Shown here in pieces: positions 44,986 through 60,003 of a stretch of 64,000 nucleotides of DNA (positions are counted from its first letter, which is position 1; the number at the start of each line of letters is the position of its first letter). The stretch is from contig JBBQAL010000002.1 in assembly GCA_038316135.1 (NCBI GenBank), forward strand, positions 1,869-65,868. The letters are read 5' to 3'. The notes below the pieces were generated by a model. The model saw nothing but the letters and a program-made list of their open reading frames with translations. It searched no databases and was not told the origin of the DNA. Position numbers and translations under genes: made by a program. This DNA comes from Candidatus Nanopelagicales bacterium (GTDB taxonomy: Bacteria; Actinomycetota; Actinomycetes; JAHEKZ01).

Positions 44986-45955
44986 GGGGTTGCCACATGG
45001 AGAGAGCAAATCGGCCCGCCTGATCGGTCCACCACCCGAGCGGGCCGAAGCCGATCGTGGCCATCTCCGCTGACAAGGACTCACGTCGGAACTTTGCCGA
45101 GATCTCGGTGCGCATCTCCTCGTCATCGACGAAGTCGACAGTCAGGTCGATGGCGGCCACCCGCACTGTCATGGCCCGCAGAGCGCGAAGGCGCATCTCA
45201 ATCCATTCAAACTCATCGTCCCAGATGACGACATGCTCGAACCCTTCCGCGTCGAAATCGGCGCCCAGCTCCCGGTTGACCACAGACAACACGTTCCGGT
45301 TAAAGGCAGCGGTGACCCCGGCGGAGTCGTCGTAAGCGGGTATGAGCACCTCGGGTGCTTTGACCAGGTCGGTTCCCAGAAGCAGCGTGTCGCTTGGCTG
45401 CATCACCGAATGAAGGGCTTGCAGAAATCGCGCCCGGTAGTCCGGCTCGAAGTTGCCGATCGTGCCACCGAGGAAAGCGATGAGTCGCGAGCTACTGGCA
45501 GGAATCTCGGCGAGGTGACGATCGAAGTCGGCGACCAAGCCACGAACTGCCAGGCCCGGATAAGCTTCAGCAAGGACGGGACCCGCGGCCAGCAGGGCGC
45601 TCTCACTGACGTCGAGAGCAACGTACTGACGCAATGTGCCGGTTTTGACGAGCGCGTCGAGAAGCCAACGCGTCTTGGTCGAGGAGCCTGAGCCAAGCTC
45701 GACCAGACTCTCCGCACCAGCGCAACCGACGATCTCAGCGACATGGTGCTTAAGAATCTCAGCTTCCGCACGGGTGGGGTAGTACTCGGGAAGGCGGGTG
45801 ATCTCCTCGAAGAGCTCACTGCCGGCCTTGTCGTAGAACCACTTGGGCGGCAGCCATTTCGGCGAGGCTGTCAGCCCTCGGCGCACGTCCGCGCGGAGGG
45901 CCGTACCGAGGAACTCCTCGGGCAAATGATGATCGATCTGGAAGTCGTACATCAA
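44975..45955 (-). CDS. egtD: L-histidine N-alpha-methyltransferase (ergothioneine biosynthesis)
   Basis: 326 aa. N-terminus YDFQIDHHLPEEFLGTALRADVRRGLTASPKWLPPKWFYD and SAM site ELGSGSSTKT. Position after egtC. Confidence 0.9.
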   Translation of the reverse strand: MMYDFQIDHHLPEEFLGTALRADVRRGLTASPKWLPPKWFYDKAGSELFEEITRLPEYYPTRAEAEILKHHVAEIVGCAGAESLVELGSGSSTKTRWLLDALVKTGTLRQYVALDVSESALLAAGPVLAEAYPGLAVRGLVADFDRHLAEIPASSSRLIAFLGGTIGNFEPDYRARFLQALHSVMQPSDTLLLGTDLVKAPEVLIPAYDDSAGVTAAFNRNVLSVVNRELGADFDAEGFEHVVIWDDEFEWIEMRLRALRAMTVRVAAIDLTVDFVDDEEMRTEISAKFRRESLSAEMATIGFGPLGWWTDQAGRFALSMWQPLSQ

Positions 45956-46701
45956 GGGGCCACCCTCTCCAACGGTTGAACCTCAATGCTCGAACTGGTC
46001 GCCACGACGACACTGTCGTCTGGCACTTGCTGCCAGCCTCCGCTGGTGTCCGCGGGCTCCGATGCCACCGTCACCCCGCTGTCGTCCTGGTAGGTGAACA
46101 GGGTGTCGCCGGCCGATGTTGCGACGATCTGCTCACCGTCGTGCAGCAACATGTTGTACCGACCGGGCGAGCATCGCTGCGCACGGACGGCCACCTTTGC
46201 CAGTGCTCGGAGTGCGGTGATCCCGTTCTCCAGCTCTCGCTGTACCAACAACCAGAGGAGAGCCGAATCTGTACGTGCGACTAGGCGCAGAAGTTCAGCT
46301 TGCGGGACGTCAGCAACCAGCTCCGCTACGTCCGTTGGCCACCGATCGATGCGACCGTTGTGGCTGAAGAGCCGTTCGCCGTCGCTGAAGGGAGCTGCCG
46401 ACTCAACTCCCGAAGCCGTTCCTGGGGTGGCCGAGCGGACCGCGGCCAGAACGGCCTCGGAGGAAACAGTGCCCGTCAGTTCAGGCAAGTTTGGGTCGCC
46501 CCAGAGTGGGATACCACGTCGATAGCGCTGGGGGCGCTTGGAGTCACCGGTCCACCAGCCGATCCCGAAGCCGTCGGCGTTGACCGTGCCGTACTTTTGG
46601 AACCGCGGCTGCCAGGCTTGTCGTTGTAGACCGAACTCCGGCTCAAGAATGAGGTCAGACAACGTCCGGGGACGCCCGATGTAGGCAAAGTGGCGGCACA
46701 T
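45952..46701 (-). CDS. egtC: Ergothioneine biosynthesis amidohydrolase (class-II glutamine amidotransferase fold)
   Basis: Start at MCRHFAYIGRP, with Cys2 as the N-terminal nucleophile. About 249 aa. Between egtB and egtD. Confidence 0.85.
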   Translation of the reverse strand: MCRHFAYIGRPRTLSDLILEPEFGLQRQAWQPRFQKYGTVNADGFGIGWWTGDSKRPQRYRRGIPLWGDPNLPELTGTVSSEAVLAAVRSATPGTASGVESAAPFSDGERLFSHNGRIDRWPTDVAELVADVPQAELLRLVARTDSALLWLLVQRELENGITALRALAKVAVRAQRCSPGRYNMLLHDGEQIVATSAGDTLFTYQDDSGVTVASEPADTSGGWQQVPDDSVVVATSSSIEVQPLERVAP

Positions 46702-46705
46702 CGCG

Positions 46706-48013
46706 CTACTCCCCTGCGTCCTGCGCACAGCGGAAGCCGCTGAAGATCTGCCTGCGGATCGGCAAGTCCCAGTTGCGGAACGTACCGCGGATGGCGACCG
46801 GGTCGACCGACCACGCCCCCCCGCGCAGCACTCGATGGGAGCGGCCAAAGAAGACTTCGGAGTACTCCCGGTACGGCCAGGCAGCAAAGCCCGGATACGG
46901 CGCGAAGGTGCTCGCCGTCCACTCCCAGACATCGCCAATCATCTGGTGAACTCCGTAGGCCGATGCTCCTTGGGGGTAGGCGCCAATCGGTGCTGGCTGA
47001 AGATATCGCTGCCCGAAATTGCCGTGCGCGACCGAAGGGTCGTCGTCACCCCATGGGTAACGGCGAGAGCGCCCCGAGACCGGGTCGTGGCGCGCAGCCT
47101 TCTCCCACTCCAGCTCGGTTGGCAGCCGTTTCCCCGCCCATCGGGCGTACGCGTCGGCCTCGAACCAGCTGACGTGCTGCACCGGCTCGCGGGCGGGCAA
47201 CGTCTCGTGCACCCCGAATCGGAGCCTGCTCCAGGATGCGCCTTCACGCTCCCAGAAGAGAGGGGCAACAAGCGCGGCCTCCTGCCGATGCCGCCACCCG
47301 TCCGGAGACCACCAGCGGGGGTCGTCGTATCCACCGGCTGTGACGAACTGCAGGTACTGCTCGTTGGTGACTGGGAAGGTATCGATCCAGAAGGCCGGCA
47401 AGTGAACCTCATGTGCTGGCCGTTCGTTGTCGAGCGCCCATGGCTCGGTGGACGTCCCCATCGTGAAGGCACCCCCCGGGATGAACCGTTCCGCGGGAAC
47501 GGTCTTCAGATCAAGGACGGCTTCTGGCGGCGCCGCTGCCCAGAGCAGACCGGGCCCCCGGCGCAGCTGGTGTGTTGCCAGCATCGTCTCGTCGTGCTGT
47601 GCCTCGTGCTGAGCGATCATGCCGAAAGCGAAGCCATCGTTGACGATCGGGCGTCCCTCCAGGGGCGTGTCGTCAAGGACGTCGAGGACTTTGGCCCGCA
47701 CTTCCGCTACGTAGGAGCGCGACTCCTGCGGCGAAAGCAGCGGCAACGCCGGACGCTCGGCCCGTGGATGTTGAAAAGCGTCGTAGAGCTCGTCGACGGC
47801 CGGGTCCATGACCGGGTCGCGGCCACCCACATCACGTACCAGCCAGAGCTCTTCCTGATTGCCGATGTGAGCCAGATCCCACACCAGCGGGGACATGATC
47901 GGTGAGTGCTGGCGCGTGAGATCGATGTCATCAACAACGTCGGTGAGCAAGTCGGTACGTGCCCTCGTCCGCTGCAGTGTTCGCGCGATCGATTCCTTGG
48001 ACGTCGACGTCAC
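46706..48013 (-). CDS. egtB: Hercynine oxygenase / sulfoxide synthase (DinB_2 plus FGE-sulfatase domains)
   Basis: 435 aa. DinB-like N-terminus with HxxxE and an FGE-like C-terminus (RGGAW, GFRC). Confidence 0.9.
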   Translation of the reverse strand: MTSTSKESIARTLQRTRARTDLLTDVVDDIDLTRQHSPIMSPLVWDLAHIGNQEELWLVRDVGGRDPVMDPAVDELYDAFQHPRAERPALPLLSPQESRSYVAEVRAKVLDVLDDTPLEGRPIVNDGFAFGMIAQHEAQHDETMLATHQLRRGPGLLWAAAPPEAVLDLKTVPAERFIPGGAFTMGTSTEPWALDNERPAHEVHLPAFWIDTFPVTNEQYLQFVTAGGYDDPRWWSPDGWRHRQEAALVAPLFWEREGASWSRLRFGVHETLPAREPVQHVSWFEADAYARWAGKRLPTELEWEKAARHDPVSGRSRRYPWGDDDPSVAHGNFGQRYLQPAPIGAYPQGASAYGVHQMIGDVWEWTASTFAPYPGFAAWPYREYSEVFFGRSHRVLRGGAWSVDPVAIRGTFRNWDLPIRRQIFSGFRCAQDAGE

Positions 48014-49419
48014 GGACGCACCCCAACCGGAACAGGGACTGGCGCATCAATAGCAGGGTGTGGTGGCGGAGTGACGCCTGGTCCAACTGCGCGCAAGTCG
48101 TCAGCCGGGCATCGGGCGGCGCTGGTGTAGTCATCGGAAAACCTCGCCAGGCGGTCAACGATCCATGGTGGCGCCGAGGATCGGTCCAGTGACTCAGTCG
48201 CCAGAGCGAGAAGTCCGGTCGCAGCGGACGCGATGGCGCGGTCGGCAAGGCCAAGGCGCGCAGCGTCCGACCAGCGACCCTCAGTCGGCTCAGTGAGCTC
48301 GAGCGCGCGATCACCGATGTCAGTGTCTTCAGCCAAGGCGTAGAGGACGGCAAGGGGAAGGGCCCAACCGTCTCCGCGCTGTGCATCCAGGTATCGAACT
48401 TCGACCGCGCCCCGCGGTCGCACCGGAGGGAACAGGGTCGTGAGGTGGTACCGAAGGTCAATCGGAGTCGGCGGGCGCAATCCCAGGGAATCAAAGCCGG
48501 AGATCCACTCGGAGAAGGTGAATCTTCGGGCGACCGACCACGAATCTTGCTCATCGTGGCTCGACCTGGGCAGCATCATCACCGGGGCTGCGAGCGCATA
48601 ACGGATGTAGGAGTCGGCGGCTTCCGGCGCCGGGTGCCGCGTCGGGACAGGCGAGGTGCGGGCAGGGTCCAGCGACAGCCAAACCCCTTGACGAGCGCTG
48701 ACCCAGCCAGTATCCCGACCCTCAACGAACGGTGAGTTTGCGAAAGCGGCGACCAGCGCCGGCCCAACGGCGTGCAACAACCGCCACCGACGCTGAATAT
48801 CCGCGGCGGCCCCGGATTCAAGGGTGATTTGCAGCGAAGCCGTTGCTCGCATCATCATCCGCCCGCTGGGACCGTATTGGTCGAGGTACGACTCCATGGC
48901 TCGGTACCGGGGGTGGTCGGTTCGGCGCGGCGGTAGGTAGACCGGATCGGTCCCTTCACCGAGCAGCTTCACGCCGGCCTTTGAACTCCTTCGCCGCAAC
49001 TCCTCCAGGTCGGCCGCGACGGCGGTCAAGGCGTCCACCAGCCCGCTGCAGACCCGCGAGGAAATCTCCAGCTGCCCACCGGGTTCCTCGGTGACCTGTC
49101 CCCCAGACCGCAACTCGCGTCGGTCCAGGGCATCAAGGCCATCGCGGGCAAGTGGGGCACCCATAGCGTCCCGGGTGAGGAACTCGACCTCGACGCCGAC
49201 CCGGCCAGGTACGGCGGTCGTGAAGGCAGTCGACATGAGCAAGTTCTCTGCGTCAGCCAGGGTCAGGCGTGCCGGGTCAGAAGAATGCGCCACAGCGACC
49301 TCCTCCCCGCGTGTCAGTAGTGGTCCACTCCGGCACAGCACAGAACTGCCCCTGGTCTGATCTGTGTCGGCAGCCCGAGCCACCGTTACACCCTTGCCCG
49401 ATTCTCGCCTACCGTCCAC
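48010..49419 (-). CDS. egtA: Glutamate--cysteine ligase, GCS2 family (ergothioneine pathway)
   Basis: GVEVEF motif and GCS2-like body. Overlaps egtB by 4 bp. First gene of the egtABCD block. Confidence 0.8.
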   Translation of the reverse strand: MDGRRESGKGVTVARAADTDQTRGSSVLCRSGPLLTRGEEVAVAHSSDPARLTLADAENLLMSTAFTTAVPGRVGVEVEFLTRDAMGAPLARDGLDALDRRELRSGGQVTEEPGGQLEISSRVCSGLVDALTAVAADLEELRRRSSKAGVKLLGEGTDPVYLPPRRTDHPRYRAMESYLDQYGPSGRMMMRATASLQITLESGAAADIQRRWRLLHAVGPALVAAFANSPFVEGRDTGWVSARQGVWLSLDPARTSPVPTRHPAPEAADSYIRYALAAPVMMLPRSSHDEQDSWSVARRFTFSEWISGFDSLGLRPPTPIDLRYHLTTLFPPVRPRGAVEVRYLDAQRGDGWALPLAVLYALAEDTDIGDRALELTEPTEGRWSDAARLGLADRAIASAATGLLALATESLDRSSAPPWIVDRLARFSDDYTSAARCPADDLRAVGPGVTPPPHPAIDAPVPVPVGVRP

Positions 49420-49467: not shown

Positions 49468-50961
49468 TCAGACCGCGGCCATCACCAGCAGGCCGCCGGC
49501 GGCAGTCACGGCACCCGCTGTGACAACGGGGAGCCAGCGGAGCGCTCGCAACGCGGAGGGCCGCTGGCCTCGCTCTGCCCAGGTGAAGAGCCGCTCTTGG
49601 CCGCGGAGCACGGCGAAACCAACCCCGGCCAGAGTGAGTGCCATTCCTGCGCCGAACGCCAGGACGAGCAGGACGCCGAACCAGGCACGCCCGGCGGCGA
49701 CCGCCGCGAGCAGGACGACCACCGCTGAAGGGCTGGGGAGCAAGCCACCGGTGACCCCGAGCGCAACGAGGATGCCGCGCCTTGGCCGACGTTCATCCAC
49801 CCGCTCCGTTTCAACGTCCTGCGCGAGGGGCCGAACCAGCGTGTTTGTCGCCACCGCATCCCGGCCGTGGTCATGCAAGGGCCCGTGGTCATGCGAATGC
49901 CCGTGGTCATGCGAATGCCCGTGACCCGCTCCGCGGACCGCGTTACGCAGCAGCACGAGACCCATGACCAGGACAACGGCTCCGGTGATGACTCCAAGCA
50001 GCGGGTACACAGCAGCGGGAGCTGCCGTGGCCGTTCCGGCGACCACAAGGCCGAGGACCAGGACACTGGCCGTATGGGTGGCGGTCACCGTGATCCCAAC
50101 GGTCAGCGCGGCGCGACCGGCCCGCTCACGCCGCCCGGCCAGAGCGAACGCCACAAGTGACTTGCCGTGTCCTGGTGCCAGTGCATGAGTGGCCCCGACA
50201 ACAAGTGCCACCAAGAGCGCCAGTGTTATGCCGATAGGGCCTGTCGCCGTCGACGACACCGAGCCCAGCAAGGCGGCACCCCAGCCCCATGGCGTGCTGG
50301 TACTCGTCGAGGTCGCCGTCTGCGCAGGTGCCGCCAGCGACGGTCCACCGGGCTCAAGTTGAGCAGAGGCCGTATTGACGTGCAGGGGGTTCGTCTGTTG
50401 CGACTCCGGGTACTCGGTTAGTACTCCCGACACACTCTGGGTCGGGACGTTGGTATCGGTCACGGTGACGCCATCTCCCTGCAGGGTCACCTCGCGCCAT
50501 CCGACCTCCGTTGGTGCGGTGTCGTCGGAGAAAGTGAGTGAGCCACCCGCCGCGACCGCAACGACTCCACGCAGGTTGCACTCAAGTCGCATGGTGTTCA
50601 GGCCAGCCTGTCCAGCCGCCAGTGACGCTGAGGACCCCTCGGACCGCAACACCACCGAACGATCGCCAACCGACATCTGAAGGTCGCGAGCAGCTTCGTC
50701 ACACTGGGCCAGAGCAAAACGGCTCAGCTCGCCAGCCGAGGCTGACTCATCGCCATTGACGTCGAGCTCCGCCATGGCCTGTACGGTGGGAATCTCCGCA
50801 AGGTCGACCACGTGCACGACCTGGACCTGGTCTGTCGAGACAACGATCCCGTTGTAATGGTTGACCGAGAAATTCCCGAGCGGGTGCGCCGATGCGGCGC
50901 CCGGAGCGGCCAACAAACCGACGATGGCGAGCGCAGCAACGGCAAGCACGCGACGGATCAT
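49468..50961 (-). CDS. COG2215/RcnA-like metal (Ni/Co-type) transporter-family membrane protein with an N-terminal secreted domain and a His-rich loop
   Basis: Signal peptide (...AAPGAASA|HPLGNF), a roughly 230-aa extracytoplasmic domain, then TM helices carrying the HALAPGHGKSL motif and a GHGHSHDHGHSHDHGPLHDHG loop. The ATG overlaps the TPR-gene stop (ATGA). Confidence 0.65.
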   Translation of the reverse strand: MIRRVLAVAALAIVGLLAAPGAASAHPLGNFSVNHYNGIVVSTDQVQVVHVVDLAEIPTVQAMAELDVNGDESASAGELSRFALAQCDEAARDLQMSVGDRSVVLRSEGSSASLAAGQAGLNTMRLECNLRGVVAVAAGGSLTFSDDTAPTEVGWREVTLQGDGVTVTDTNVPTQSVSGVLTEYPESQQTNPLHVNTASAQLEPGGPSLAAPAQTATSTSTSTPWGWGAALLGSVSSTATGPIGITLALLVALVVGATHALAPGHGKSLVAFALAGRRERAGRAALTVGITVTATHTASVLVLGLVVAGTATAAPAAVYPLLGVITGAVVLVMGLVLLRNAVRGAGHGHSHDHGHSHDHGPLHDHGRDAVATNTLVRPLAQDVETERVDERRPRRGILVALGVTGGLLPSPSAVVVLLAAVAAGRAWFGVLLVLAFGAGMALTLAGVGFAVLRGQERLFTWAERGQRPSALRALRWLPVVTAGAVTAAGGLLVMAAV

Positions 50962-52292
50962 GAGCTCGCCTCCAGCTCGGCGAGAAGTTCCTGCAGCTGT
51001 TCGGACTGCCACGGTGCGTACCCTCTGTCGCTGCGCAATGCAGCCTGCAGATGGGTCCGTGCGGCGCCCTGCATCCCGAGTGCGAGTTCGATGGCACCTC
51101 GGTGCTGCAGCGATCGGGCGTCACCGCCGTAAACCGTCGCCAGACGGGCATATCGCAGCGCCTCGGTGTCCCGACCATTGACATGTAGGGCCCAAGCCAG
51201 GGCGTCAGCGACCAGCGGTGAGTGACGACGCCCCCATTCAGCCTCGGCATTGCGCAGGGCAATAGTGGCGTCGCCGTGGTCTGCCTCGAACCACGCGAGC
51301 TCGAGATCTGGGCGGATGCCAGACGCCCTGGCTAGGCGGGCAGACGCACGCACAACGGCGTACTGCTGCTGCGCGGCCCCGCGATCACCGGAGATCTCAT
51401 AGAGCTCGCCGAGCGCGATCAGGTGCTCAAGCAGCGGCACCCTGGTCACCACCTCGCGCAAGATGCTGATCGCACGGTCGACGTGACCACGCAGGGCAAG
51501 CACGCGCGCGCGGCCGGCGAGTGCATTCGGGTCAGTGGGCACCACCTGCAACGCCGCCCGGTAATGCGCGTCAGCAGCGCCGAGGTCTCCGGCGCGGCGA
51601 GCTATCTCTCCAAGGTGGTAGTTGACGAAGGCACGTGCATTAGGGTCCGTTGCGCTGGTGAGCGCAGAGGAGAAGTAGCGGCGAGCGTCTGTTTCGTTCC
51701 CGCGAAGCTCAGACTGGTAGGCCAGACGCGTCGTTGCAGCAAGTCCTGGTTGCAGTCGGTCGAAGGTGCGGGCGGCCCGTAGCGCGGCAGGAAGCTTTCC
51801 GAGCTCGGTCAGTGCGTCGACTCGGACGCCGAGCGCCGGGCGCGAGTACGGATTGAGGCGCAGCGCTCGGTCTGCTTGGGCAAGCGCCGCCGTGAAGCGA
51901 TGTTCGGCCGAGAGCAGCGCGGCCTGGGCAGCCTGGGCGAGGTCGTTGGCGCGCGGCATCTCTTCAAGTGATCGAGTGGCAGCCTGCTTCGACGCGGCGT
52001 ACGCCGCTGGGTCTGCCGTCACGCGCCCTTGTTCGATGAGGAGCAGTGCAAGGACCCCCCAGCTATGTGCGTCAGCCGGCTGTGCGTCAAGGTGCTGCCG
52101 CAGCGACTCGATCTGTCCAGCGAGGTCCGCGCTCGACGTGAAGACGGCCGCGTCGGCGTTGGCGTTGGCTGAGGGATCGGTGGGGGGCGACTGCGCACCG
52201 CTCAGTCGCGGAGGCAGCAGCGCAGCGGCAACGGTGAGGGCTCCTGCAATCACCAGCGCCGCTGCAGCTTTGGCCGGTCGTGAGGGTGTCAC
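50958..52292 (-). CDS. Secreted tetratricopeptide-repeat protein
   Basis: N-terminal signal/TM (AAALVIAGALTVAAALL) followed by multiple TPR-like Ala/Leu/Arg repeats (e.g. YFSSALTSATDPNARAFVNYHLGEIARRAGD). Confidence 0.7.
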   Translation of the reverse strand: MTPSRPAKAAAALVIAGALTVAAALLPPRLSGAQSPPTDPSANANADAAVFTSSADLAGQIESLRQHLDAQPADAHSWGVLALLLIEQGRVTADPAAYAASKQAATRSLEEMPRANDLAQAAQAALLSAEHRFTAALAQADRALRLNPYSRPALGVRVDALTELGKLPAALRAARTFDRLQPGLAATTRLAYQSELRGNETDARRYFSSALTSATDPNARAFVNYHLGEIARRAGDLGAADAHYRAALQVVPTDPNALAGRARVLALRGHVDRAISILREVVTRVPLLEHLIALGELYEISGDRGAAQQQYAVVRASARLARASGIRPDLELAWFEADHGDATIALRNAEAEWGRRHSPLVADALAWALHVNGRDTEALRYARLATVYGGDARSLQHRGAIELALGMQGAARTHLQAALRSDRGYAPWQSEQLQELLAELEASS

Positions 52293-52391
52293 GTCGTCTC
52301 CTCGGGTGGATCGAGTGGTGGTGGCGGTGGTTGGGGCCGGGCCCTGGCCGCCCCGCCGATGTGGCGGAGCGGCCAGGGAGTTTCCCCGCGG

Positions 52392-53915
52392 TCAGGCCTT
52401 CGCGGATTCGGTGCGTCCGGCGCGACCGAACATCACCGCGCCGCCGACCATCGCCAGGAATCCGAGAGCAACGGCTGCCGCGGACCACGGCGAGCCACCC
52501 TCTGACGCGACACCTGCGCTAACGGCGTTGGCCGCATCCGATCCGCCTTCGATCGGCGAGTACGAGCTGTTGCTCACGGTGGGACCACTCACGGAACCGT
52601 CGTGCGGCAACGCGACGTACGGGAAGTACTCCGTGAACGCCTTGTCGTTCGTGCCGACGCCGTCACCAAGGTCGTTCGGTGAGCCGACGAGCTCACCCTC
52701 GACGACCTGAAGCGCGATGTCGAGGACGTCATCGGTCAGTCGTCGCCCGTTCGGGAACCCAGCGGTGTCGCCACCGATAACCCCAAGACGGTCGGGGTTC
52801 GCGGTCGGTGGGATCGAGGTGTTGAGCCTCAGCATCTCGCCCGGCGCCTTTAGGTTCGCGGGCTGGTTGAGCCCTTCCACACCAGTGAGGAAGACCGAAA
52901 CCAGATCGTCGCGAGGAGTCGCCGGTGCGGGGATGCCATAGACGGCGTCCACAAGGTCAGCCAGGTGTGAGTTCTTCACGTACTTCAGGTACTGCGGGTC
53001 ATCCACCGGACGGCTGGCGTTGAAACCATCTTTGTCCTTGAGTGGGATGACTACCTCGTTCACAAGCGGGTTGCCAAGGCGCGAAACCTGCGACCATTTG
53101 CCGGACGCCGTGCGCTCCTGCGTGGTGGTCCATACACCGAAGACGGGGTCGCCGTCGGTGGTCAACGACTTCGACGGCACCTGGAGCGCAACCGTGTTCA
53201 CATTGAACCCAGCGAGCGTGTCGTTTCCAACTTCAGAGAGGTCACCGCCATAGAGCAGGTCAAATACGCGCAGGTCGAGGAAGAACGGGTCGTCGGCCTG
53301 ACCGGCGTAGGTCTTTCCGTTTCCCTTGAGTACGGGTGTGATCGCCTCGTTCCGCAGCTGCGCGTAGTTCGGCATGGATGCGGTTCCGGTGTGGCTTGGA
53401 GCGACTGGGCCCTTTGCCATGACCTTGGTTCCACCCCCGACGTTCAGACGCGTCAAGGTGAACTTCTGGCGCACGTTGAGGTCAGGGTCGGTGAGGCTGG
53501 TGACCTGTCCGGTGTTGTAGAGGAAGGTGTCCTCGTTCTGGTAGGTGGTCTTGAAGGTCCACCGGTAAATCTTCTCCGCCTTCGCATCCCCGTCGTTGTC
53601 GATACGCAGGTCATACTGCGCGTCGGTGGCGAATGGGTAGAAGTTGGGACCGCCCGATGGCTCCTCGAAGGGAATCCAGTTGGCGATGAGGGTCGTTTTG
53701 GCCGGTGCCTTCGGGCTCACAAAGGCGTACAGGTCGGTGCCGTCGTACTGTGGCATGCCACTGATCAGTGGTGCCTCGCGGTGGCTGGACGCCACAGCGC
53801 TCAGGGGAGCAAGGCCGACAGCGCCGACGCCAGCGATCAGCGCCCCGCTGGCGAGTGTGGCTGCAGCACGACGACGCCGGGTGGCGCGATTCGTGCGTGG
53901 GGTTGGGGGTTGCAT
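52392..53915 (-). CDS. DUF4331-family secreted protein with a C-terminal membrane anchor
   Basis: TAT-like signal (RRRRAAATLASGALIAGVGAV). The hallmark SSHREAP motif follows the predicted cleavage site. C-terminal hydrophobic segment AAAVALGFLAMVGGAVMF. Confidence 0.7.
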   Translation of the reverse strand: MQPPTPRTNRATRRRRAAATLASGALIAGVGAVGLAPLSAVASSHREAPLISGMPQYDGTDLYAFVSPKAPAKTTLIANWIPFEEPSGGPNFYPFATDAQYDLRIDNDGDAKAEKIYRWTFKTTYQNEDTFLYNTGQVTSLTDPDLNVRQKFTLTRLNVGGGTKVMAKGPVAPSHTGTASMPNYAQLRNEAITPVLKGNGKTYAGQADDPFFLDLRVFDLLYGGDLSEVGNDTLAGFNVNTVALQVPSKSLTTDGDPVFGVWTTTQERTASGKWSQVSRLGNPLVNEVVIPLKDKDGFNASRPVDDPQYLKYVKNSHLADLVDAVYGIPAPATPRDDLVSVFLTGVEGLNQPANLKAPGEMLRLNTSIPPTANPDRLGVIGGDTAGFPNGRRLTDDVLDIALQVVEGELVGSPNDLGDGVGTNDKAFTEYFPYVALPHDGSVSGPTVSNSSYSPIEGGSDAANAVSAGVASEGGSPWSAAAVALGFLAMVGGAVMFGRAGRTESAKA

Positions 53916-54026
53916 CAGATCCTCCGAATCGAAGCGGGCGCACCGCCAACTCAGCGATGCACCCCTCATTCGGAGCCAACTCGTCCGCGGATTGGTCCGC
54001 CATCAGCCCAGATCACGGCTGAGCGT

Positions 54027-54764
54027 TCAAGCGGAGAGCTGGACGAGCAGCACCGGGTCGGTTGTCGGCGCTTGCGACCCACCCTCCGGCTCGATGCTCA
54101 TGCCGAACGTGGTCGTTCCGGCCGGCAGCTCCACCAGGGCTGTTGCCCGCCCGGAGTCCGGCTGCAGCAGCCCAACAGACGTCGCCCCTTGATCGTCGAT
54201 CGCCCAAAGCTGATATGTCTCGTCCGGCCCGGTCGCAGGTAGCGACGCAGCCAAGAAGGCGGCCCGTTCGAGGTTCGGCGAGACCACCAGAGTTCCCGTA
54301 CCGCCCCCTGTGACATCAGTGCGCTCCACTGTGGCGTCAGGATCACCGAGCAAAGCAGTGATCTGGTCAGCAGCAACCTGAGCGTCGGTAGCGCGTTCAG
54401 TTGCCTGGTAGGTCGAGACTCCTAGCGCGCCGGCCACGATCACGGCCGCGGCCGCCACCCCGGCTAGCACCCGGTTGACCCCTCGCCGGCGGAGGCGGGC
54501 TTCGGCGAGATCGATCACTTGCGGCTCGGGAGCGTGCTCCACCTGCGGTACCCGGCTGACCTGCTTGAGCACTTCGGCACGTAAGGACGCCGGTGGTGTC
54601 TCGGCCACCGAACTTGCCAGCGCAGCCACTGTCTCATGCATTCCGCGCAGCTCCTCAACGCATGGGTCGCAACCGTCCAGGTGGTCTTCAAAGGTCGCGG
54701 ACTCACGTGAGTCGAGTGCATCGAGCGCGTAGGCGGCGGCAAGATCGTGGACGTTGTCGCTCAT
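54027..54764 (-). CDS. rskA: Anti-sigma-K factor (RskA family)
   Basis: N-terminal anti-sigma domain (HDLAAAYALDALDSRESATFEDHLDGCDPC), a single TM and an RskA-like C-terminal domain. The ATG overlaps the sigma stop (ATGA). Confidence 0.8.
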   Translation of the reverse strand: MSDNVHDLAAAYALDALDSRESATFEDHLDGCDPCVEELRGMHETVAALASSVAETPPASLRAEVLKQVSRVPQVEHAPEPQVIDLAEARLRRRGVNRVLAGVAAAAVIVAGALGVSTYQATERATDAQVAADQITALLGDPDATVERTDVTGGGTGTLVVSPNLERAAFLAASLPATGPDETYQLWAIDDQGATSVGLLQPDSGRATALVELPAGTTTFGMSIEPEGGSQAPTTDPVLLVQLSA

Positions 54765-55393
54765 GCGGTAACCCCCAGGCAGTCTCGGAGCCGGATGATG
54801 CCATCACGCATCCGAGTCTTGATGGTGCCAAGTGGAGCCCCGAGCCGCTCGGCGACTTCGGGGTAGGTGAAGCCGCTGAAGTACGCCAAGGTCACCGACT
54901 CCCTTTGTAGCTTGGTAAGAGCGTCGATGCATTCGCGCATCGCTTGGGCCTCGAGCCGGTCCTCGACCTCCTCGGCCACCTCGTCGTGCTCGCGCTCCAC
55001 TGAACGCTGTGCAACGCGCAACTCCCGATCCGACGCCGCTTGCACCGAGCGCACCCGGTCGACGGCTCGCCGATGAGCCATGGTCATCACCCAGGCGAAG
55101 CCGGTACCGCGCCCTGGGTCGAACCGCGGAGCCTGCTGCCACACCTCGAGCAACACCTCTTGGGCCACTTCCTCGGCCAACTCAACCTGGCGAAGGACGC
55201 GCCTGGCGAGACCGAACACGGCGGGGGCAACGGCGTCGTAAAGCTCCGCAAAAGCCCCGTCGTCGCCCTTGGCGACCCGAAGTAGCAGCGGATCGAGATG
55301 ACGGCGCCCTGGTGTCTCAGCCGCGATCTGGTCCTCAGTGTCCGTTGGCACAAGGTGCAGTCTGGTCCGACATGGCTCGGCGGCGCCAGACAT
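54761..55393 (-). CDS. sigK: ECF sigma factor, SigK-like
   Basis: Start at MSGAAEPC. Region 2 (AQEVLLEVWQQAPRFDPGRGTGFAWVMTMAHRRAVDRVR) and a region-4 HTH (ESVTLAYFSGFTYPEVAERLGAPLGTIKTRMRDGIIRLR). Confidence 0.8.
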   Translation of the reverse strand: MSGAAEPCRTRLHLVPTDTEDQIAAETPGRRHLDPLLLRVAKGDDGAFAELYDAVAPAVFGLARRVLRQVELAEEVAQEVLLEVWQQAPRFDPGRGTGFAWVMTMAHRRAVDRVRSVQAASDRELRVAQRSVEREHDEVAEEVEDRLEAQAMRECIDALTKLQRESVTLAYFSGFTYPEVAERLGAPLGTIKTRMRDGIIRLRDCLGVTA

Positions 55394-55585
55394 AGCCTCA
55401 CCTTTGCTCTCGACTGCGGTCTCCATTGGGTATTCGAAGCCACGGCCGGTCTGGATTGCCTCTGTTTGCCTCCCCTTGGGTTGGCCCCGAAGGCAAGATG
55501 ATCGGAGAGCCAGCACCGAGCAGTAGCTCGAGAAGTTCTCCGGGCGGATGTCAACCCGGAGATCGGGTCGGAACGACTACTTCGT

Positions 55586-56182
55586 GTGACCTTGACCGCA
55601 GAGCCCCCAGCAGAAGGGCATGGCGTGGGCACTATTGACGACGGCCCGCACCTCATCGAAGGGAAGGTCGAGCGACTTCCCCAGGTGGTGTCGTTCTCTA
55701 CCGTCTTTCGGGCCGAGTACCGGGGGCTGGTGGCCATCGCCTGGGGGCTCACTGGTTCACGCGACACGGCCGAGGACATGGCCCAGGAGGCGATGCTGAG
55801 TTTGCACCGCCACCTCGAGAGGGGCGATGTGATTGAGAACCCAGCTGCCTACGTCCGTCGGTCATGTTCCAACCTCTCTGTCTCGTGGGTGCGAAGGAGG
55901 ATGGCCGAGACTCGTGCGTTGTTACGCATGGGGGCGCCACCGGGGAGTGCCCCGGCGCCAGACGCCGAGAACGACGCCTTCTGGTCTGAAGTTCGACGGC
56001 TGCCAAGACGGCAGGCGCAGGTCATCGCCCTGTTCTACGGCTACGACCTGAGCGTGGCAGACCTCGCCGCCACCCTTGAGATATCGACAGGAACCGCCAA
56101 GACCCACCTGTTTCGTGGACGACGGACCCTCGCGGCACGGCTTGGCCTTGACGCTGATAACCCGGACGGGGATGTGAGCTGA
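55586..56182 (+). CDS. ECF sigma factor
   Basis: Region 2 (AEDMAQEAMLSLHRHLERGDVIENPAAYVRR) and a region-4 HTH (QAQVIALFYGYDLSVADLAATLEISTGTAKTHLFRGRRTL). The N-terminal start is uncertain. Confidence 0.8.
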   Translation: MTLTAEPPAEGHGVGTIDDGPHLIEGKVERLPQVVSFSTVFRAEYRGLVAIAWGLTGSRDTAEDMAQEAMLSLHRHLERGDVIENPAAYVRRSCSNLSVSWVRRRMAETRALLRMGAPPGSAPAPDAENDAFWSEVRRLPRRQAQVIALFYGYDLSVADLAATLEISTGTAKTHLFRGRRTLAARLGLDADNPDGDVS

Positions 56183-56937
56183 TGTCCATCGACACCCTTG
56201 GCCGCCAGGCGAGCGAGGCTCTCTTCGCGGCAACAGCAGACCTCGACGCCCAGACTTCACTCCGCCGCAATCTCGAATCATCGCGGGGACGTCGCCGGCT
56301 CAGCCCTGCACTCGTCGTCGTCGCTGCTGTCGTCATCCTGGTCGTCGGGTGGGCGTTCAGTGGCGACCTGCAGCGCTCGGCCGTGCCTGCACCCCCACTT
56401 GACACGCCTCTCCCCGTGCTGGTCGGGAAGAAGCTTGGTGGCCCCATAACTGCCGTGGCTCCCACAGGTTGGGAGGTCATCAACGATCGAGCGTACGTCG
56501 AGATGCGCCCCGCCGACGGATCGCCGGGGATGCAGGTGTTCATGGTCGTCCCCCGCAGGGTCTATGACCCACCATCCGACGAACTGGTTCCGCTCAAGGA
56601 CGACCCCGTCGTCTGGATAACAACCCACCCGGAGGTGAAGACTCTTGACAAGTTCGGTGTCGATGGCCCCGGCTCGGCTTGGACTGCAACAGCGGTCGAT
56701 CTGTCGTTGTCACCGAAAGCCAAGAATGACTGGGTCCACCTCCTGCCACTTTCGATGGCGCCCGGCTCACCGCCGCTCGCCATCACCGCAAACAACGGAA
56801 TGGACCGCTGGATCATCATCGACTTCGAGAAGTCTCGTCCGCTCATCATCGCGGCAACATCACCAACTCGGGACGACCCCGATCTAGCCACGGCAATCAA
56901 CCAACTGCTTGCCTCAATCCAAATCCAGCAGAACTAA
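56182..56937 (+). CDS. Putative single-pass membrane anti-sigma factor
   Basis: The ATG overlaps the sigma-gene stop (ATGA). TM segment LSPALVVVAAVVILVVGWAF and a roughly 190-aa extracytoplasmic domain. Confidence 0.5.
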   Translation: MSIDTLGRQASEALFAATADLDAQTSLRRNLESSRGRRRLSPALVVVAAVVILVVGWAFSGDLQRSAVPAPPLDTPLPVLVGKKLGGPITAVAPTGWEVINDRAYVEMRPADGSPGMQVFMVVPRRVYDPPSDELVPLKDDPVVWITTHPEVKTLDKFGVDGPGSAWTATAVDLSLSPKAKNDWVHLLPLSMAPGSPPLAITANNGMDRWIIIDFEKSRPLIIAATSPTRDDPDLATAINQLLASIQIQQN

Positions 56938-56952
56938 ACGGGGAAGGAAACC

Positions 56953-57537
56953 ATGAACACAAAACAACGACTCGCTTCGGTTCTGGCAGCCGCCGGATTT
57001 GCGGCGATGTCTTTGAGCGCAGCACCGACGGCCAGTGCGGCTCCACTAGAGTCGGGCACCTTCGACTTTAGTACGAACGCCACGTTCGACGACTGCGGCT
57101 TCGCGGTCCATGAGGACTCCCATGCCTACGGCAGGTACACGATCAGTAAGGGCACGAACAAAACCAGCGGCGAGTACTTCAGGCTCAAGCAGCAGGTGCA
57201 GTACAGCGGGACCTACACCAACGTGAAGACTGGGGCCTACTTCACTGAAGAATGGCACACGAACATCCGCCAGCTTCCAGCCACGATCGTGGACGAGAAC
57301 GGTCCGGTCGTCACCTACCAAGTCAAAGAGAGCGGCGTCTGGGATACCCTTCGCGACTCCTCAGGCAACGTGCGCTACCGGAGTACCGGCAACCTGGTGT
57401 TCTCCTACGTCTTCGACACCGGCGGCGACTCAGCACCTGGCGGTGAGATCCTCGCCGAGGACTTCGTCAGGACGTCCGGGAACTGGCAGACGTGGGACAC
57501 AGACTTCTGCGCGATCGTAAGCGACCTGATCGGCTGA
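56953..57537 (+). CDS. Secreted hypothetical protein (Sec signal peptide) with lower GC than its surroundings
   Basis: Signal MNTKQRLASVLAAAGFAAMSLSAAPTASA|AP. An SD-like GGGAAGGAAACC lies upstream of the ATG. The AT-rich N-terminal codons are unusual for this window. Confidence 0.6.
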   Translation: MNTKQRLASVLAAAGFAAMSLSAAPTASAAPLESGTFDFSTNATFDDCGFAVHEDSHAYGRYTISKGTNKTSGEYFRLKQQVQYSGTYTNVKTGAYFTEEWHTNIRQLPATIVDENGPVVTYQVKESGVWDTLRDSSGNVRYRSTGNLVFSYVFDTGGDSAPGGEILAEDFVRTSGNWQTWDTDFCAIVSDLIG

Positions 57538-57538
57538 G

Positions 57539-58342
57539 CTACCCACGGAACCGCCTGGAAGCCGCGGCTCGCTCAGCGAGCTCGGCGTCCGGTGGGTAGG
57601 CGACCTCTTCCAAGGTCAGGCCGTGTGGCGGCATCACTGTGACCGACGAAGAGCGCTTGACCTCAGCAAGGACGTCGCCTACCCACCGAGCGGGCCGCCG
57701 GCCCTCCCCCACTGCTACGCATGCGCCAACGATCGACCGCACCATGTTGTGGCAGAACGCATCTGCGATCAATGTCGCCTCCAGCAGACCTCCGTCGATG
57801 CGCGCCCACTCGAAGACTCGGAGCGAACGCACGGTGCTTGCGCCGTCTCGTCGTTTGCAGAAGGCGACGAAGTCGTGCTCCCCCACCAGCTCGGCCGCCG
57901 CGGTATTCAGGAGGGCAACGTCCAACCGACGCCGATTCCACACCACATCGGATCGCCGAATCGGATCGACGCCGACGGGGTCGTCGCAGATCCGAAATAC
58001 GTACCTCCGCGACTCAGCACTGAAGCGCGCATCGAATCCCTCGGGCGCCACCCGCACACCGGTAACCCGCACGTCCACGGACAGCAAGCCTGACAGCCGG
58101 TACAGCACCCGCTCACCGTTGGCGTTCCAGGCATTCGCCGGCACGTCGGTGTGAGCCACCTGACCGCGCGCATGGACGCCTGCATCAGTTCGCCCTGCGA
58201 CCGTCAGCCCGGGTGCAGCCTCCAGCCGGAGTACCACCGCGAGCGCGTCATCGAGAACTCCCTCGACCGTGCGACGCCCTGGTTGCTTGGCCCAACCAGA
58301 GAAGCCGGCACCGTCGTAACCGAGGTCAAGGCGCAAACGCAC
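57539..58342 (-). CDS. truA: tRNA pseudouridine(38-40) synthase
   Basis: MRLRLDLGYDGAGFSGWAKQPG start, including the catalytic Asp region RTDAGVHA. Conserved position downstream of rplQ. Confidence 0.9.
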   Translation of the reverse strand: MRLRLDLGYDGAGFSGWAKQPGRRTVEGVLDDALAVVLRLEAAPGLTVAGRTDAGVHARGQVAHTDVPANAWNANGERVLYRLSGLLSVDVRVTGVRVAPEGFDARFSAESRRYVFRICDDPVGVDPIRRSDVVWNRRRLDVALLNTAAAELVGEHDFVAFCKRRDGASTVRSLRVFEWARIDGGLLEATLIADAFCHNMVRSIVGACVAVGEGRRPARWVGDVLAEVKRSSSVTVMPPHGLTLEEVAYPPDAELAERAAASRRFRG

Positions 58343-58392
58343 GAGCCCGCTCCCCCTCTGGGGAACGGGCTCGTGGTCAGACTCCGGAGTCG

Positions 58393-58953
58393 TCAGGACT
58401 CCTTGGGATTGTCAGCCTCGTCGGCCGTCTCCTCAGTGACCTCAGCCGCCGCCTCTTCGACGACAGCCTCTTCGGTCGCGGCATCTTCGTTCACCGACTC
58501 TTCGACCTCGGCCGCTTCGACAGTAGCCGCTTCGACAACAGCGGGAGTTGTCTCCTTCTTCGGCTTCGTCGCGCGCGTTTTGCGCTTACTCTCGTCCAAT
58601 CGCTCCACCAGCTCGATAACCGCCATCGGGGCGTTGTCGCCCTTGCGTGGCCCAATCTTGGTGATCCTGGTGTAGCCACCTGCACGGTTGTCGTACTGCG
58701 GGGCAATGTCGGTAAAGAGCGTGTGAACAACACCCTTGTCACCGATAACCGTCATCACCCGCCGCCGCGAGGCGAGGTCACCCCGCTTGGCGAAGGTGAT
58801 CAGACGCTCGGCCAGTGGGCGTACCCGCTTGGCCTTGGCCTCAGTCGTGGTGATGCGGCCGTGCTCGAAGAGCGCGGTGGCGAGGTTCGCCAGGATGAGC
58901 CGCTCGTGCGCCGGACTGCCGCCAAGACGCGGGCCCTTAGTGGGGCTTGGCAT
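58393..58953 (-). CDS. rplQ: 50S ribosomal protein L17, with an acidic Ala/Glu-rich C-terminal extension
   Basis: [42 protein letters not shown]..., followed by a low-complexity tail ([26 protein letters not shown]). Confidence 0.95.
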
Positions 58954-58986
58954 TTCTCGATCTCCTTGAGTTCAGTCAGGCGGTGG

Positions 58987-60003
58987 TTAGAGCTGCTCGT
59001 CCTCGACGAATCCCTCGTCGTCGTCTTCGTCGTAGTTGTCAACGATCGCCGAGGGGTCGAATCCGGGGGGGCTGTCCTTCAGAGCCATGCCGAGTCCGAC
59101 GAGCTTGGCCTTCACCTCGTCGATCGACTTCGCACCGAAGTTACGGATGTCCATGAGGTCGGCCTCGCTTCGGCTGATGAGCTCACCCACCGAGTGGATG
59201 CCCTCGCGCTTGAGGCAGTTGTAGGACCGGACGGTGAGGTCGAGCTCTTCGATGGGAAGCGCCATGTCGGCGGCCAGAGCTGCATCAGCCGGTGACGGAC
59301 CCATGTCGATGCCCTCGGCCTCGGCGTTGAGTTCGCGGAAGAGGCCGAAGAGCTCAACGAGAGTCTTTCCGGCGGACGCCACGGCGTCACGGGGACGCAT
59401 GGACGCCTTCGTCTCAACGTCGATTACGAGGCGGTCGAAGTCAGTCCGCTGCTCGACACGAGTGGCCTCAACCTTGTACGAGACCTTCAGCACGGGCGAG
59501 TAGATGGAGTCGACCGGAATGCGGCCGATCTCCTGACCCGCCTGCTTGTTGAGCTCAGCGCGCACGTAGCCGCGACCGCGTTCAACCGTAAGCTCCATCT
59601 CCAACTTGCCCTTGCCGTTGAGCGTCGCGAGCACAAGCTCGGGGTTATGAACCTCGACTCCGGCGGGCGGGGCGATGTCAGCAGCGGTGACGACGCCGGG
59701 GCCCTGCTTGCGCAGGTACATCACCACAGGCTCGTCGTGCTCAGTGCTCACGATCAGCTCTTTGATGTTGAGGACGATGTCGGTGACGTCCTCCTTCACA
59801 CCGGGAACCGTAGTGAACTCGTGCAGCACACCGTCGACGCGAATCGACGTCACTGCGGCGCCCGGGATGGACGACAACAGAGTGCGGCGGAGCGAGTTGC
59901 CGAGCGTGTAGCCGAAGCCAGGCTCGAGCGGCTCGAGGATGAACCGCGAGCGGTTCTCATTAACAACTTCTTCGGCCAACGATGGCCGCTGTGCGATCAG
60001 CAC
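58987..60003 (-). CDS. rpoA: DNA-directed RNA polymerase subunit alpha
   Basis: [12 protein letters not shown]...[31 protein letters not shown]. 338 aa. Confidence 0.97.

Follow-up and report, generated by a model that had tools for sequence, protein, structure and literature searches.

A SigK/RskA-type sigma and anti-sigma pair is followed in the window (the whole 64-kb stretch of DNA analysed) by genes for a DUF4331 protein, a TPR protein and a His-rich membrane protein, which raises the question of what the three proteins do together and whether the sigma factor controls them. The initial annotation had proposed nickel, cobalt or copper acquisition or efflux under an ECF sigma factor. The three-gene operon that adjoins the SigK/RskA pair is widely conserved yet unstudied, and the literature search found no paper mentioning DUF4331.

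Gene order and conservation of the locus

All five genes are located on the minus strand:

54761..55393 (alternative start 55426), minus strand: sigK, ECF sigma factor of the ECF19/SigK type (NF007228 match)
54027..54764, minus strand: rskA, membrane anti-sigma-K factor (RskA_N, RskA_C, zf-HC2, NF052375)
52392..53915, minus strand: DUF4331 surface protein, with signal peptide, SSHREAP, a domain of about 400 aa, a linker and a C-terminal TM anchor (PF14224)
50958..52292, minus strand: extracytoplasmic TPR protein with an N-terminal hydrophobic segment (TPR_2, TPR_14)
49468..50961, minus strand: permease, with signal peptide, His1 ectodomain, six-TM NicO/RcnA-like domain and His-rich loop (NF007454 below cut-off; homologues match NicO and DsbD_2)

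These identities agree with those given in the initial annotation, through Pfam or NCBIfam matches for the sigma factor, the anti-sigma factor, DUF4331 and the TPR protein, and through NicO and DsbD_2 matches in the homologues of the permease. The DUF4331, TPR and NicO genes are kept in this order, with the TPR gene in the middle, in 64 of 69 related genome loci with enough flanking sequence, and the trio is also kept in distant lineages. Starting from the NicO side, it is recovered in three of three look-ups, with a 4-nt overlap of the TPR and NicO genes; in the window, the permease ATG overlaps the TPR stop codon as ATGA, the coupling described earlier. sigK lies within 10 kb of the trio in only 43 of 65 loci. 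In the lineages L081, L087 and L088, the trio is present without sigK and without the promoter motif described below, and at L086 NicO is missing and DUF4331 still has SSHREAP. In a Dormibacteraeota genome, DUF4331 is likewise paired with NicO and an ECF sigma factor. Since the same-order trio is found again in 64 of the 69 loci, the arrangement is, as judged from gene order, not due to chance.

The TPR protein scores 42.7 bits with TPR_2 (cut-off 27) and 38.7 bits with TPR_14 (cut-off 23.5). Its RHxF and FEADH motifs and H397 are invariant among distant orthologues.

The SigK/RskA pair and a shared putative promoter motif

SigK matches NCBIfam NF007228 ('SigK') at 271.5 bits against a cut-off of 226 and consists of the Sigma70_r2 and Sigma70_r4_2 domains only. 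It is 59% identical to ECF19_1315 of S. coelicolor and 50% identical to SigK of M. tuberculosis. Cys166 and Cys216 (numbered from the alternative ATG at 55426) are 50 residues apart and align with both cysteines of the M. tuberculosis protein, C133 and C183. RskA matches RskA_C (PF10099) at 85.3 bits, RskA_N (PF22618) at 39.2 and zf-HC2 at 26.1, all over the Pfam cut-offs, and the anti-sigma family NF052375 at 192 bits (cut-off 100). It carries an HxxxCxxC motif and a hydrophobic segment at residues 99-117, and its gene overlaps sigK by ATGA. Because the extracellular part of RskA contains no His or Cys, the protein is, from its composition, unlikely to sense metal directly.

Two putative promoters are recognized:

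55432..55457, minus strand: putative SigK-type promoter of sigK-rskA (AATCC-N16-CGAAT, exact match)
53968..53993, minus strand: putative SigK-type promoter of the DUF4331 operon (CCAATCC-N16-CGAAT, exact match)

CAATCC-N16-CGAAT has exactly two exact matches in the window, one ahead of sigK and the other ahead of the DUF4331 gene. The putative sigK promoter is followed by an RBS (AAGGTGAGG) and then by the ATG at 55393. Across related loci, the extended motif ACCAATCC-N16-(C/T)CCGAAT stands 50-145 nt upstream of DUF4331 in 43 of 80 cases, some of which have no sigK within 10 kb. It occurs 51 times in 1.49 Mb of related loci; 43 occurrences are upstream of DUF4331, and 46 are at one of two positions, upstream of sigK or of DUF4331. 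The same motif precedes sigK in L001 and L003, and the strict form is absent upstream of sigK in most Streptomyces loci. The claim of ECF control is thus backed by a conserved SigK-type motif common to both upstream regions, and SigK/RskA very probably drives the DUF4331-TPR-NicO operon, to judge from these sites.

The motif could instead be the operator or promoter of another regulator, with sigK-rskA being only a frequent neighbour. Such a reading would fit the loci in which sigK is farther than 10 kb from the trio, the Streptomyces sigK genes that lack the strict motif, and L081, L087 and L088, which have the trio but neither motif nor sigK. The predicted ECF19 promoter (Rhodius 2013) is unlike it, and the reporter values of that promoter in the supplementary activity table are apparently near background. 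However, the motif is asymmetric and strand-specific, has an ECF-like -35/-10 spacing of 16 nt and lies at promoter distance from the start codon. It is also found ahead of sigK in the window, L001 and L003, which is what an autoregulated ECF sigma factor would show, and high conservation of SigK binding sites across Actinobacteria has been reported (PMC7509140). Control by a different regulator is judged very unlikely, and control by SigK is the reading retained below.

The DUF4331 protein and its predicted N-terminus

Three elements in and behind the DUF4331 gene are considered:

53769..53789, minus strand: SSHREAP, predicted mature N-terminus (His45 is residue 3, or residue 1 if the cut is ASS/H, the slash marking cleavage)
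52416..52490, minus strand: C-terminal hydrophobic anchor followed by a basic tail (AF2 helix 476-506)
52342..52378, minus strand: perfect 16-bp GC-rich hairpin, 14 nt past the DUF4331 stop codon, a putative intra-operon attenuator or stabiliser

PF14224 matches the protein over its full length (E=1.7e-152, 508.9 bits, model positions 1-421 of 421), in keeping with the proposed family, and the model begins exactly at SSHREAP, directly after AVA. The Ser, His, Arg and Pro of SSHREAP do not vary, and in 227 of 231 homologues the motif is preceded by A-x-A, which continues as ASSH in 210 of the 227. The RRRR of the signal peptide in the window protein is not conserved among homologues. His45 is the sole invariant His of DUF4331, and the protein has no Cys. 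Among the remaining invariant residues, Asp, Glu, Asn and Arg predominate; these would equally suit Ca2+ or a non-metal ligand. The conserved A-x-A/S-S-H places His at position 3 with no Pro at position 2, and it would give the X-X-His start of the ATCUN site proposed in the initial annotation. ASS/H would give His1, and because A-x-A-S-S-H contains two acceptable signal-peptidase sites, ATCUN is one of two possibilities.

Of 268 DUF4331 homologues, 139 carry a hydrophobic stretch of 15 or more residues at the C-terminus. The Dormibacteraeota homologue has LAQTG in place of the anchor, and a sortase gene is in its operon. As predicted from these features and the AF2 model, the DUF4331 protein is anchored at the cell surface. 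No close solved fold or informative structural relative of DUF4331 was found, and no catalytic function is readable from it.

The 116-nt intergenic region 52285..52400, which contains the hairpin, has a folding energy of -60.1 kcal/mol (z=-4.95), and none of 200 shuffles is as stable. Of 69 related loci, 62 have a comparable stem after DUF4331, compared with 41% of random windows. This conserved hairpin after the gene suggests that, as with binding proteins, the cell makes more DUF4331 than permease.

A permease with an ectodomain predicted to start at histidine

The permease contains two further elements of note:

50326..50886, minus strand: Ang-1-like beta-sandwich ectodomain starting at His26 (HPLGNF; structural match to 9GCE)
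49789..49917, minus strand: His-rich loop between TM3 and TM4, predicted to be cytoplasmic (from the translation; AF2 residues 349-391 disordered)

As described earlier, the translations show the SSHREAP motif, the ASA/HPLGNF junction and, as GHGHSHDHGHSHDHGPLHDHG, the (GH/SH/DH)n loop. A-x-A/HPLGNF is found in 118 of 120 permease homologues. The -2 position at both predicted cleavage sites, here and in DUF4331, is variable and often bulky; this is expected of a real cleavage site and supports the predicted cuts that expose His. The His-exposing signal-peptidase sites postulated earlier are thus backed, as predictions, by conservation in both proteins (210 of 227 and 118 of 120).

The ectodomain is an Ig-like beta-sandwich, and two methods give the Cu-bound mono-histidine-brace domain Ang-1 (PDB 9GCE) as its closest structural counterpart, a fold that lends support to the suggested histidine-brace-like start (PMC12537917). 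Its other structural relatives are the Zn-binding ZrgA and PA4063, and one homologue weakly matches Pfam ZrgA. A search of the PDB with the ectodomain HMM found neither Ang-1 nor ZrgA; the likeness to Ang-1 is one of fold only. The ectodomain has a pair of invariant Cys residues and, in most cases, a loop like an EF-hand. No HupE/UreJ-2 fusion occurs among 531 homologues, and PF13795 is absent from the 120 best-matching homologues of the ectodomain; the TM domain matches NicO and DsbD_2 alone. Ang domains use His1 to bind Cu (Kd about 74 nM) and Ni (220 nM) and are proposed to fish for either metal and feed the fused permease (PMC12537917).

The membrane domain has six TM helices in the AF2 model, with the loop between TM3 and TM4. 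The window protein scores 72.7 bits with NF007454 against a cut-off of 195 and has no match to Pfam NicO (PF03824). Among its homologues (E<=0.1), NicO is matched by 24 of 27, with a best value of 1.9e-13, and DsbD_2 by 27 of 27; their best NCBIfam match is RcnA-type at 73-116 bits, all below the 195 cut-off. The PF03824 assignment is backed at the family level by these homologues; the window protein itself is under the COG2215/RcnA threshold. The conserved motifs are HALAPGHGK, THT and GGLxPSPSA. The loop varies in length, is His-rich in all 27 homologues and has basic residues on both flanks. Thiol-disulfide transfer by the permease was considered and rejected, the TM motifs having His and no Cys (HALAPGHGK and PSPSA, against the Cys-containing motifs of DsbD/CcdA).

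A model for metal capture and the direction of transport

With confidence just short of even, we favour a SigK/RskA-controlled envelope operon for a Cu(II)/Ni(II)-class transition metal, which it would pass from N-terminal His sites to the permease for uptake. Signal-peptidase cleavage would leave both extracellular proteins with an invariant His exposed at the N-terminus, as His1 on the permease ectodomain and as Ser-Ser-His (or His1) on DUF4331. The tethered and presumably abundant DUF4331 would capture metal ions, and the TPR protein may act as a scaffold for their hand-off to the His1 site of the ectodomain, which would then swing over the permease mouth and deliver the ion. Inward transport would complete the process and is the least secure step of the model. 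Uptake is slightly favoured over export, by analogy, because the ectodomain relatives Ang-1, ZrgA and PA4063 all belong to uptake systems, whereas the closest named family of the TM domain, RcnA, is an exporter, which counts against uptake. Of the originally proposed acquisition or efflux of Ni, Co or Cu under an ECF sigma factor, the ECF control is backed by the motif, and the metal and direction are only inferred.

Export coupled to metallation or detoxification is possible but rather unlikely. The NicO/RcnA-like protein would export Ni, Co or Cu collected by the cytoplasmic His-rich loop; outside, the His1 ectodomain would take the ion and load DUF4331, with the TPR protein as assembly chaperone. 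DUF4331 would then be a metalloprotein of the cell surface that requires the metal, or else an extracellular sink that blocks its re-entry. The accessory protein RcnB has a comparable role for RcnA in E. coli, the Ni/Co efflux family PRK10019/RcnA matches the TM domain best among named families, and the cytoplasmic His-rich loop is as in RcnA, although the RcnA match lies far under the family cut-off and the ectodomain relatives belong to uptake systems. That DUF4331, TPR and NicO are strictly co-inherited one-to-one-to-one across phyla is consistent with a dedicated system for maturation, and SSHREAP is kept in the NicO-less L086, so DUF4331 would behave as a metalloprotein itself and not only as a feeder; the lack of a catalytic function readable from DUF4331 speaks against this. 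ECF sigma factors also often control metal-resistance efflux, CnrH being an example (mentioned in PMC7826278).

A system without metal is improbable. DUF4331 would then act as an adhesin on the surface, as an enzyme or in connection with the cell wall, its LysE/DsbD-superfamily partner would move a non-metal, and the role of the invariant N-terminal residues would lie in folding, processing or anchoring. The predominance of Asp, Glu, Asn and Arg among the invariant DUF4331 residues is compatible with this, as are the DsbD_2 matches of all 27 permease homologues and the M. tuberculosis SigK regulon (mpt70, mpt83), which is not known for metal handling (PMC4105308). However, the TM motifs contain His without Cys, ruling out thiol-disulfide transfer, the His-rich loop is conserved, the best matches of the ectodomain are a Cu-bound domain and Zn-binding proteins, and an invariant His directly follows the signal peptide in two separate proteins of one operon.

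Returning to metal uptake, a broader and unlikely extension is that DUF4331-TPR-NicO is the ancestral core SigK/RskA regulon in Actinomycetota, with envelope Cu/Ni status (or a coupled redox state) as its signal, DUF4331 as a new class of surface metalloprotein and the permease as a second type of anglerase, built on NicO/RcnA. If this were true, the flexible invariant Ser-Ser-His-Arg-Glu-Ala-Pro 'hook' of DUF4331 would order around a metal, DUF4331 and the TPR scaffold would exchange the ion with a previously undescribed NicO/RcnA-based anglerase, and the long-sought signal of the SigK/RskA pair would be found.

Comparison with known systems

RcnA, the Ni/Co efflux protein of E. coli, gives the best HMM match to the TM domain among named families and likewise has a His-rich loop between TM3 and TM4, but the scores here are 73-116 bits against the family cut-off of 195. 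TM1 of RcnA also has an H-x-x-x-P-G-H-G-K-type motif; the protein works with an extracytoplasmic accessory protein, RcnB, and is controlled by the repressor RcnR, not by an ECF sigma factor. RcnA is not known to carry an ectodomain, nor RcnB to be related to DUF4331. The periplasmic Zn-binding proteins PA4063 of P. aeruginosa and ZrgA of Vibrio cholerae (ZrgABCDE) belong to Zn uptake operons. They differ from the permease ectodomain in being free-standing and soluble, in working with ABC-type transporters and in having metal sites that are not N-terminal His.

CnrYXH, for Ni/Co resistance in Cupriavidus metallidurans, likewise places an ECF sigma factor and a membrane anti-sigma factor over an envelope metal-transport operon (mentioned in PMC7826278). 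It differs in its sigma group, its RND-type pump and CnrX, a periplasmic sensor dedicated to metal; at the SigK/RskA locus here, no sensor with metal ligands is evident. The M. tuberculosis SigK-RskA pair (regulon mpt70, mpt83 and others) has a sigma factor 50% identical to the one here, the same Cys pair, the same RskA domains and overlapping genes, and for both pairs the activating signal is not known (PMC7509140). The targets differ, a DUF4331-TPR-NicO target not being reported for mycobacteria in the literature examined.

The anglerases (Ang-1/Ang-2 with HupE/UreJ-2; Franco Cairo et al., Nat Commun 2025, PMC12537917) share with the permease an invariant His directly after the signal peptide, predicted here, and the union in one polypeptide of a beta-sandwich ectodomain with a helical insert after strand 2, a flexible linker and a multi-helix metal permease. 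Their TM domain is HupE/UreJ-2 (PF13795), whereas here it is NicO/RcnA/DsbD_2-like with a cytoplasmic His-rich loop, and Ang-1 has no detectable sequence similarity to the ectodomain. The Cys pair, the EF-hand-like loop, the constant DUF4331 and TPR partners and the frequent SigK control are features of the present system without a counterpart in PMC12537917.

Gene content and conservation of the operon

All five genes named in the initial annotation are found on the minus strand: a sigK-rskA pair and, downstream, genes for a DUF4331 protein, a TPR protein and a His-rich membrane protein, here termed the permease.

Genes of the region (window coordinates)
54761..55393, minus: sigK, 271.5 bits against the curated SigK model NF007228 (cut-off 226)
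54027..54764, minus: rskA, with RskA_N, RskA_C and an HxxxCxxC motif; ATGA overlap with sigK
52392..53915, minus: DUF4331 gene, end-to-end PF14224 match (E=1.7e-152)
50958..52292, minus: TPR gene, ATGA overlap with the permease gene
49468..50961, minus: permease gene, ATGA overlap with the TPR gene

The window SigK shares 59% identity with S. coelicolor ECF19_1315 and 50% with M. tuberculosis SigK, and its two redox-relevant Cys residues align with those of M. tuberculosis SigK. Judged by sequence, the pair is an ordinary SigK/RskA member. The PF14224 assignment proposed for the DUF4331 gene is borne out over the full length, and the model start coincides exactly with the SSHREAP motif of the window protein. 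The RcnA/NicO identity proposed for the permease stands for its homologues, which match NicO (24 of 27) and DsbD_2 (27 of 27), but the window protein itself lies below threshold, with 72.7 bits against NF007454 (RcnA; cut-off 195) and no match to Pfam NicO.

The suggested association of the three families recurs across related genomes. Among the 69 loci whose flanking sequence is long enough, 64 have the DUF4331, TPR and NicO genes in this order on one strand; rearrangements in Actinoplanes and Virgisporangium account for the rest. Of 65 loci, 43 have the sigK-rskA pair within 10 kb of the trio, usually divergent from the operon. The trio also surrounds a DUF4331 protein just 41% identical to that of the window, and look-ups from the permease side return it in three of three cases, always with a 4-nt TPR/NicO overlap. 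On a Dormibacteraeota contig, consecutive genes encode an ECF sigma factor, DUF4331, NicO, SurA_N and a sortase; one DUF4331 subfamily is found without NicO.

The nearest relative, the Actinomycetes MAG CAN_BIN24, has a DUF4331 protein with 86% identity to the window's. With truA, rplQ and rpoA on its flank (57539..60003, minus), the locus adjoins the conserved cluster of ribosomal-protein genes and rpoA in an actinobacterial chromosome. Divergent from sigK, a second ECF sigma gene (55586..56182, plus) overlaps a gene for a single-TM protein (56182..56937, plus), after which comes a gene whose secreted 194-aa product matches no family (56953..57537, plus); the stretch 55586..57537 probably forms a sigma/anti-sigma unit of its own. 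Immediately 3' of the permease gene lie the ergothioneine genes egtA, egtB and egtC (45952..49419, minus). This adjacency is probably coincidental, since egtA occurs within 10 kb in none of 80 related loci, and an ergothioneine link was rejected. Streptomyces loci, and no others, share genes for a Ser/Thr kinase, a GntR regulator and a glycosyltransferase, which indicates ordinary synteny outside the module. In some lineages DUF4331 is preceded by a conserved, N-terminally anchored protein of about 300 aa (locus L087, 352..1245; locus L088, 2077..3006); the two copies are 33% identical, have no Pfam match, are unrelated to RskA and have no counterpart in the window.

A putative SigK-dependent promoter and an intra-operon hairpin

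A SigK-type motif, CAATCC-N16-CGAAT, precedes the operon and has exactly two copies in the 64-kb window.

Regulatory features (window coordinates)
55432..55457, minus: motif copy 1, preceding sigK
53968..53993, minus: motif copy 2, 53 nt 5' of the DUF4331 start codon
52342..52378, minus: perfect 16-bp GC-rich hairpin without U-tract, 14 nt beyond the DUF4331 stop codon

The DUF4331 alignment led to 80 genome loci, which belong to Streptomyces, Nocardioides, Actinomadura, Actinoplanes and uncultured Actinomycetota. In 43 of the 80, including some without sigK within 10 kb, DUF4331 is preceded at a distance of 50-145 nt by the extended motif, ACCAATCC-N16-(C/T)CCGAAT. On both strands of the 1.49 Mb of related loci, the core motif occurs 51 times, 43 of them upstream of DUF4331 and 3 upstream of sigK. 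It is strand-specific and asymmetric, with ECF-like spacing, and is a putative SigK-dependent promoter; sigK would then be autoregulated in the window's lineage. The motif is missing from the ECF19 promoter predicted by Rhodius et al. (Pecf19_up1315), whose reporter values, as tabulated in their supplement, are apparently near background. The text of the RskA paper gives no SigK site sequence. Some distant lineages carry the trio without the motif. No meaningful sigma-70 promoters or U-tract terminators are seen in the region.

The 116-nt stretch containing the hairpin folds at -60 kcal/mol (z=-4.95), and 62 of 69 related loci have a comparable stem behind the DUF4331 gene; among random windows the share is 41%. 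The hairpin is probably an intra-operon attenuator or mRNA stabiliser. Its conservation suggests that DUF4331 is made in excess over the TPR protein and the permease, like binding proteins relative to their transporters.

DUF4331 protein

In both extracellular proteins an invariant His directly follows the predicted signal peptide. The DUF4331 family comprises 5689 clusters at 50% identity (E<=1e-3); the full-text literature search returned no paper on DUF4331 or PF14224, and no solved structural relative was found. An A-x-A followed by invariant S-S-H-R-E-A-P is present in 227 of 231 proteins, His45 being the sole invariant His of a protein without Cys. In the AF2 model, pLDDT is below 50 through Ser44, averages 52 over residues 41-50 and is high from about residue 51; this low confidence around the motif indicates that SSHREAP is invariant yet probably a flexible N-terminal peptide. 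The A-x-A-S-S-H segment offers two acceptable signal-peptidase sites, a point overlooked in the initial annotation. Predicted cleavage between A-x-A and S-S-H would give an ATCUN-type X-X-His start, and cleavage between A-S-S and H a His1 start, so that either would yield an N-terminal metal-binding motif. Tat export was rejected, as the RRRR of the window signal peptide is not conserved in homologues.

The protein is tethered by a low-complexity linker of about 35 residues and a C-terminal TM helix, followed by a basic tail (52392..52560, minus). In another phylum the tether is a sortase signal: the Dormibacteraeota homologue (P0414; locus L084, 6001..7671) ends in LAQTG, a TM helix and a basic tail, and a sortase gene lies in the same operon. 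A (L/Y/F)TALxGG motif, some 30 residues ahead of the TM helix, is common among homologues.

Permease and TPR protein

The permease homologues show the same arrangement: A-x-A is followed by invariant H-P-L-G-N-F in 118 of 120. At both N-terminal sites position -2 varies and is frequently a bulky residue, which fits a true signal-peptidase site. The AF2 model contains, in order, a β-sandwich with a helical insert (the ectodomain, pLDDT about 90), a linker and six TM helices. TM3 and TM4 are joined by a disordered His-rich loop, which is probably cytoplasmic, given the basic residues on either side of it. In this model, an ectodomain resembling Ang-1, a Cu/Ni-binding domain of known structure (PDB 9GCE), stands on a NicO/RcnA-like TM core with His-containing motifs.

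The predicted likeness to Ang-1 is by fold only. Sequence homology with Ang-1 or ZrgA was rejected: the PDB HMM search matched EF-hand loops only, Pfam returned nothing, and a profile search of 5.8 billion proteins with the ectodomain retrieved NicO-type proteins and fragments only; no HupE/UreJ-2 fusions appeared in the ectodomain profile searches. One homologue weakly matches Pfam ZrgA. Several ectodomain homologues (P0418, P0422, P0427, P0441, P0487) are just 200-330 aa long, though on long contigs, S. avermitilis SAV31267_024000 being an example; they represent free-standing Ang-like proteins or, alternatively, gene calls interrupted at the repetitive His loop.

An EF-hand-like loop of the ectodomain (50728..50763, minus; DVNGDESASAGE; family consensus DxDGDxxxSxxE) is absent from 2 of 27 homologues, and DUF4331 has a DNDGDAxxD loop at residues 106-114; both may be structural Ca2+ sites. 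In the TPR protein, RHxF (H131), FEADH (335-339) and H397 are invariant in five distant orthologues and may be extra ligand or metal contacts.

Proposed metal relay

We propose that a Cu(II)/Ni(II)-class ion is captured by the N-terminal His motif of tethered DUF4331, would be handed, on the TPR scaffold, to His1 of the ectodomain, and would then cross through the permease. Uptake is slightly favoured by analogy, because Ang-1, ZrgA and PA4063 belong to uptake systems. Export, followed by metallation of DUF4331, explains the arrangement almost as well: the TM core is RcnA-like and the His loop is predicted to be cytoplasmic, and it is the uptake origin of those three proteins that speaks against it. 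A non-metal function is less likely, because metal handling fits both N-terminal His sites, which are independent of each other, as well as the His-rich loop and the TM motifs, which contain His and no Cys.

Comparison with known systems

The activating signal, physiological role and ancestral function of SigK/RskA are unknown (PMC7509140), and for this reason the putative SigK-operon link matters. The pair controls major antigens in the tuberculosis complex, and a conserved putative SigK-dependent metal-handling operon in free-living relatives provides a concrete, testable hypothesis for it. No papers tying SigK to nickel or copper transport were found, and within the literature searched the link is apparently undescribed. 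DUF4331 and its TPR partner are uncharacterised proteins; a first functional frame for DUF4331 comes from its place in the operon, its invariant N-terminal His motif and its surface anchoring.

Through an N-terminal His in a mono-histidine brace, Ang domains bind Cu with a Kd of about 74 nM and Ni with one of 220 nM, and anglerases, in which they are fused to a permease, are proposed to fish for ions and feed that permease (PMC12537917). The Ang-1 paper mentions neither NicO, RcnA, TPR nor sigma factors (PMC12537917), and a search for 'anglerase' returned this founding paper only. The present operon would extend the principle, published in 2025, from HupE/UreJ-2 to NicO/RcnA-type permeases and add two obligate partners. 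It points to relays of N-terminal His sites as a general Gram-positive route for Cu or Ni across the wall zone. In conclusion, the window permease resembles an anglerase in its working mode, by ectodomain fold and predicted His1, but is without the HupE/UreJ-2 TM domain that defines one, and it is sub-threshold for the RcnA family. The description that suits it best is that of a new variant, in which a NicO-type permease carries an Ang-like His1 domain.
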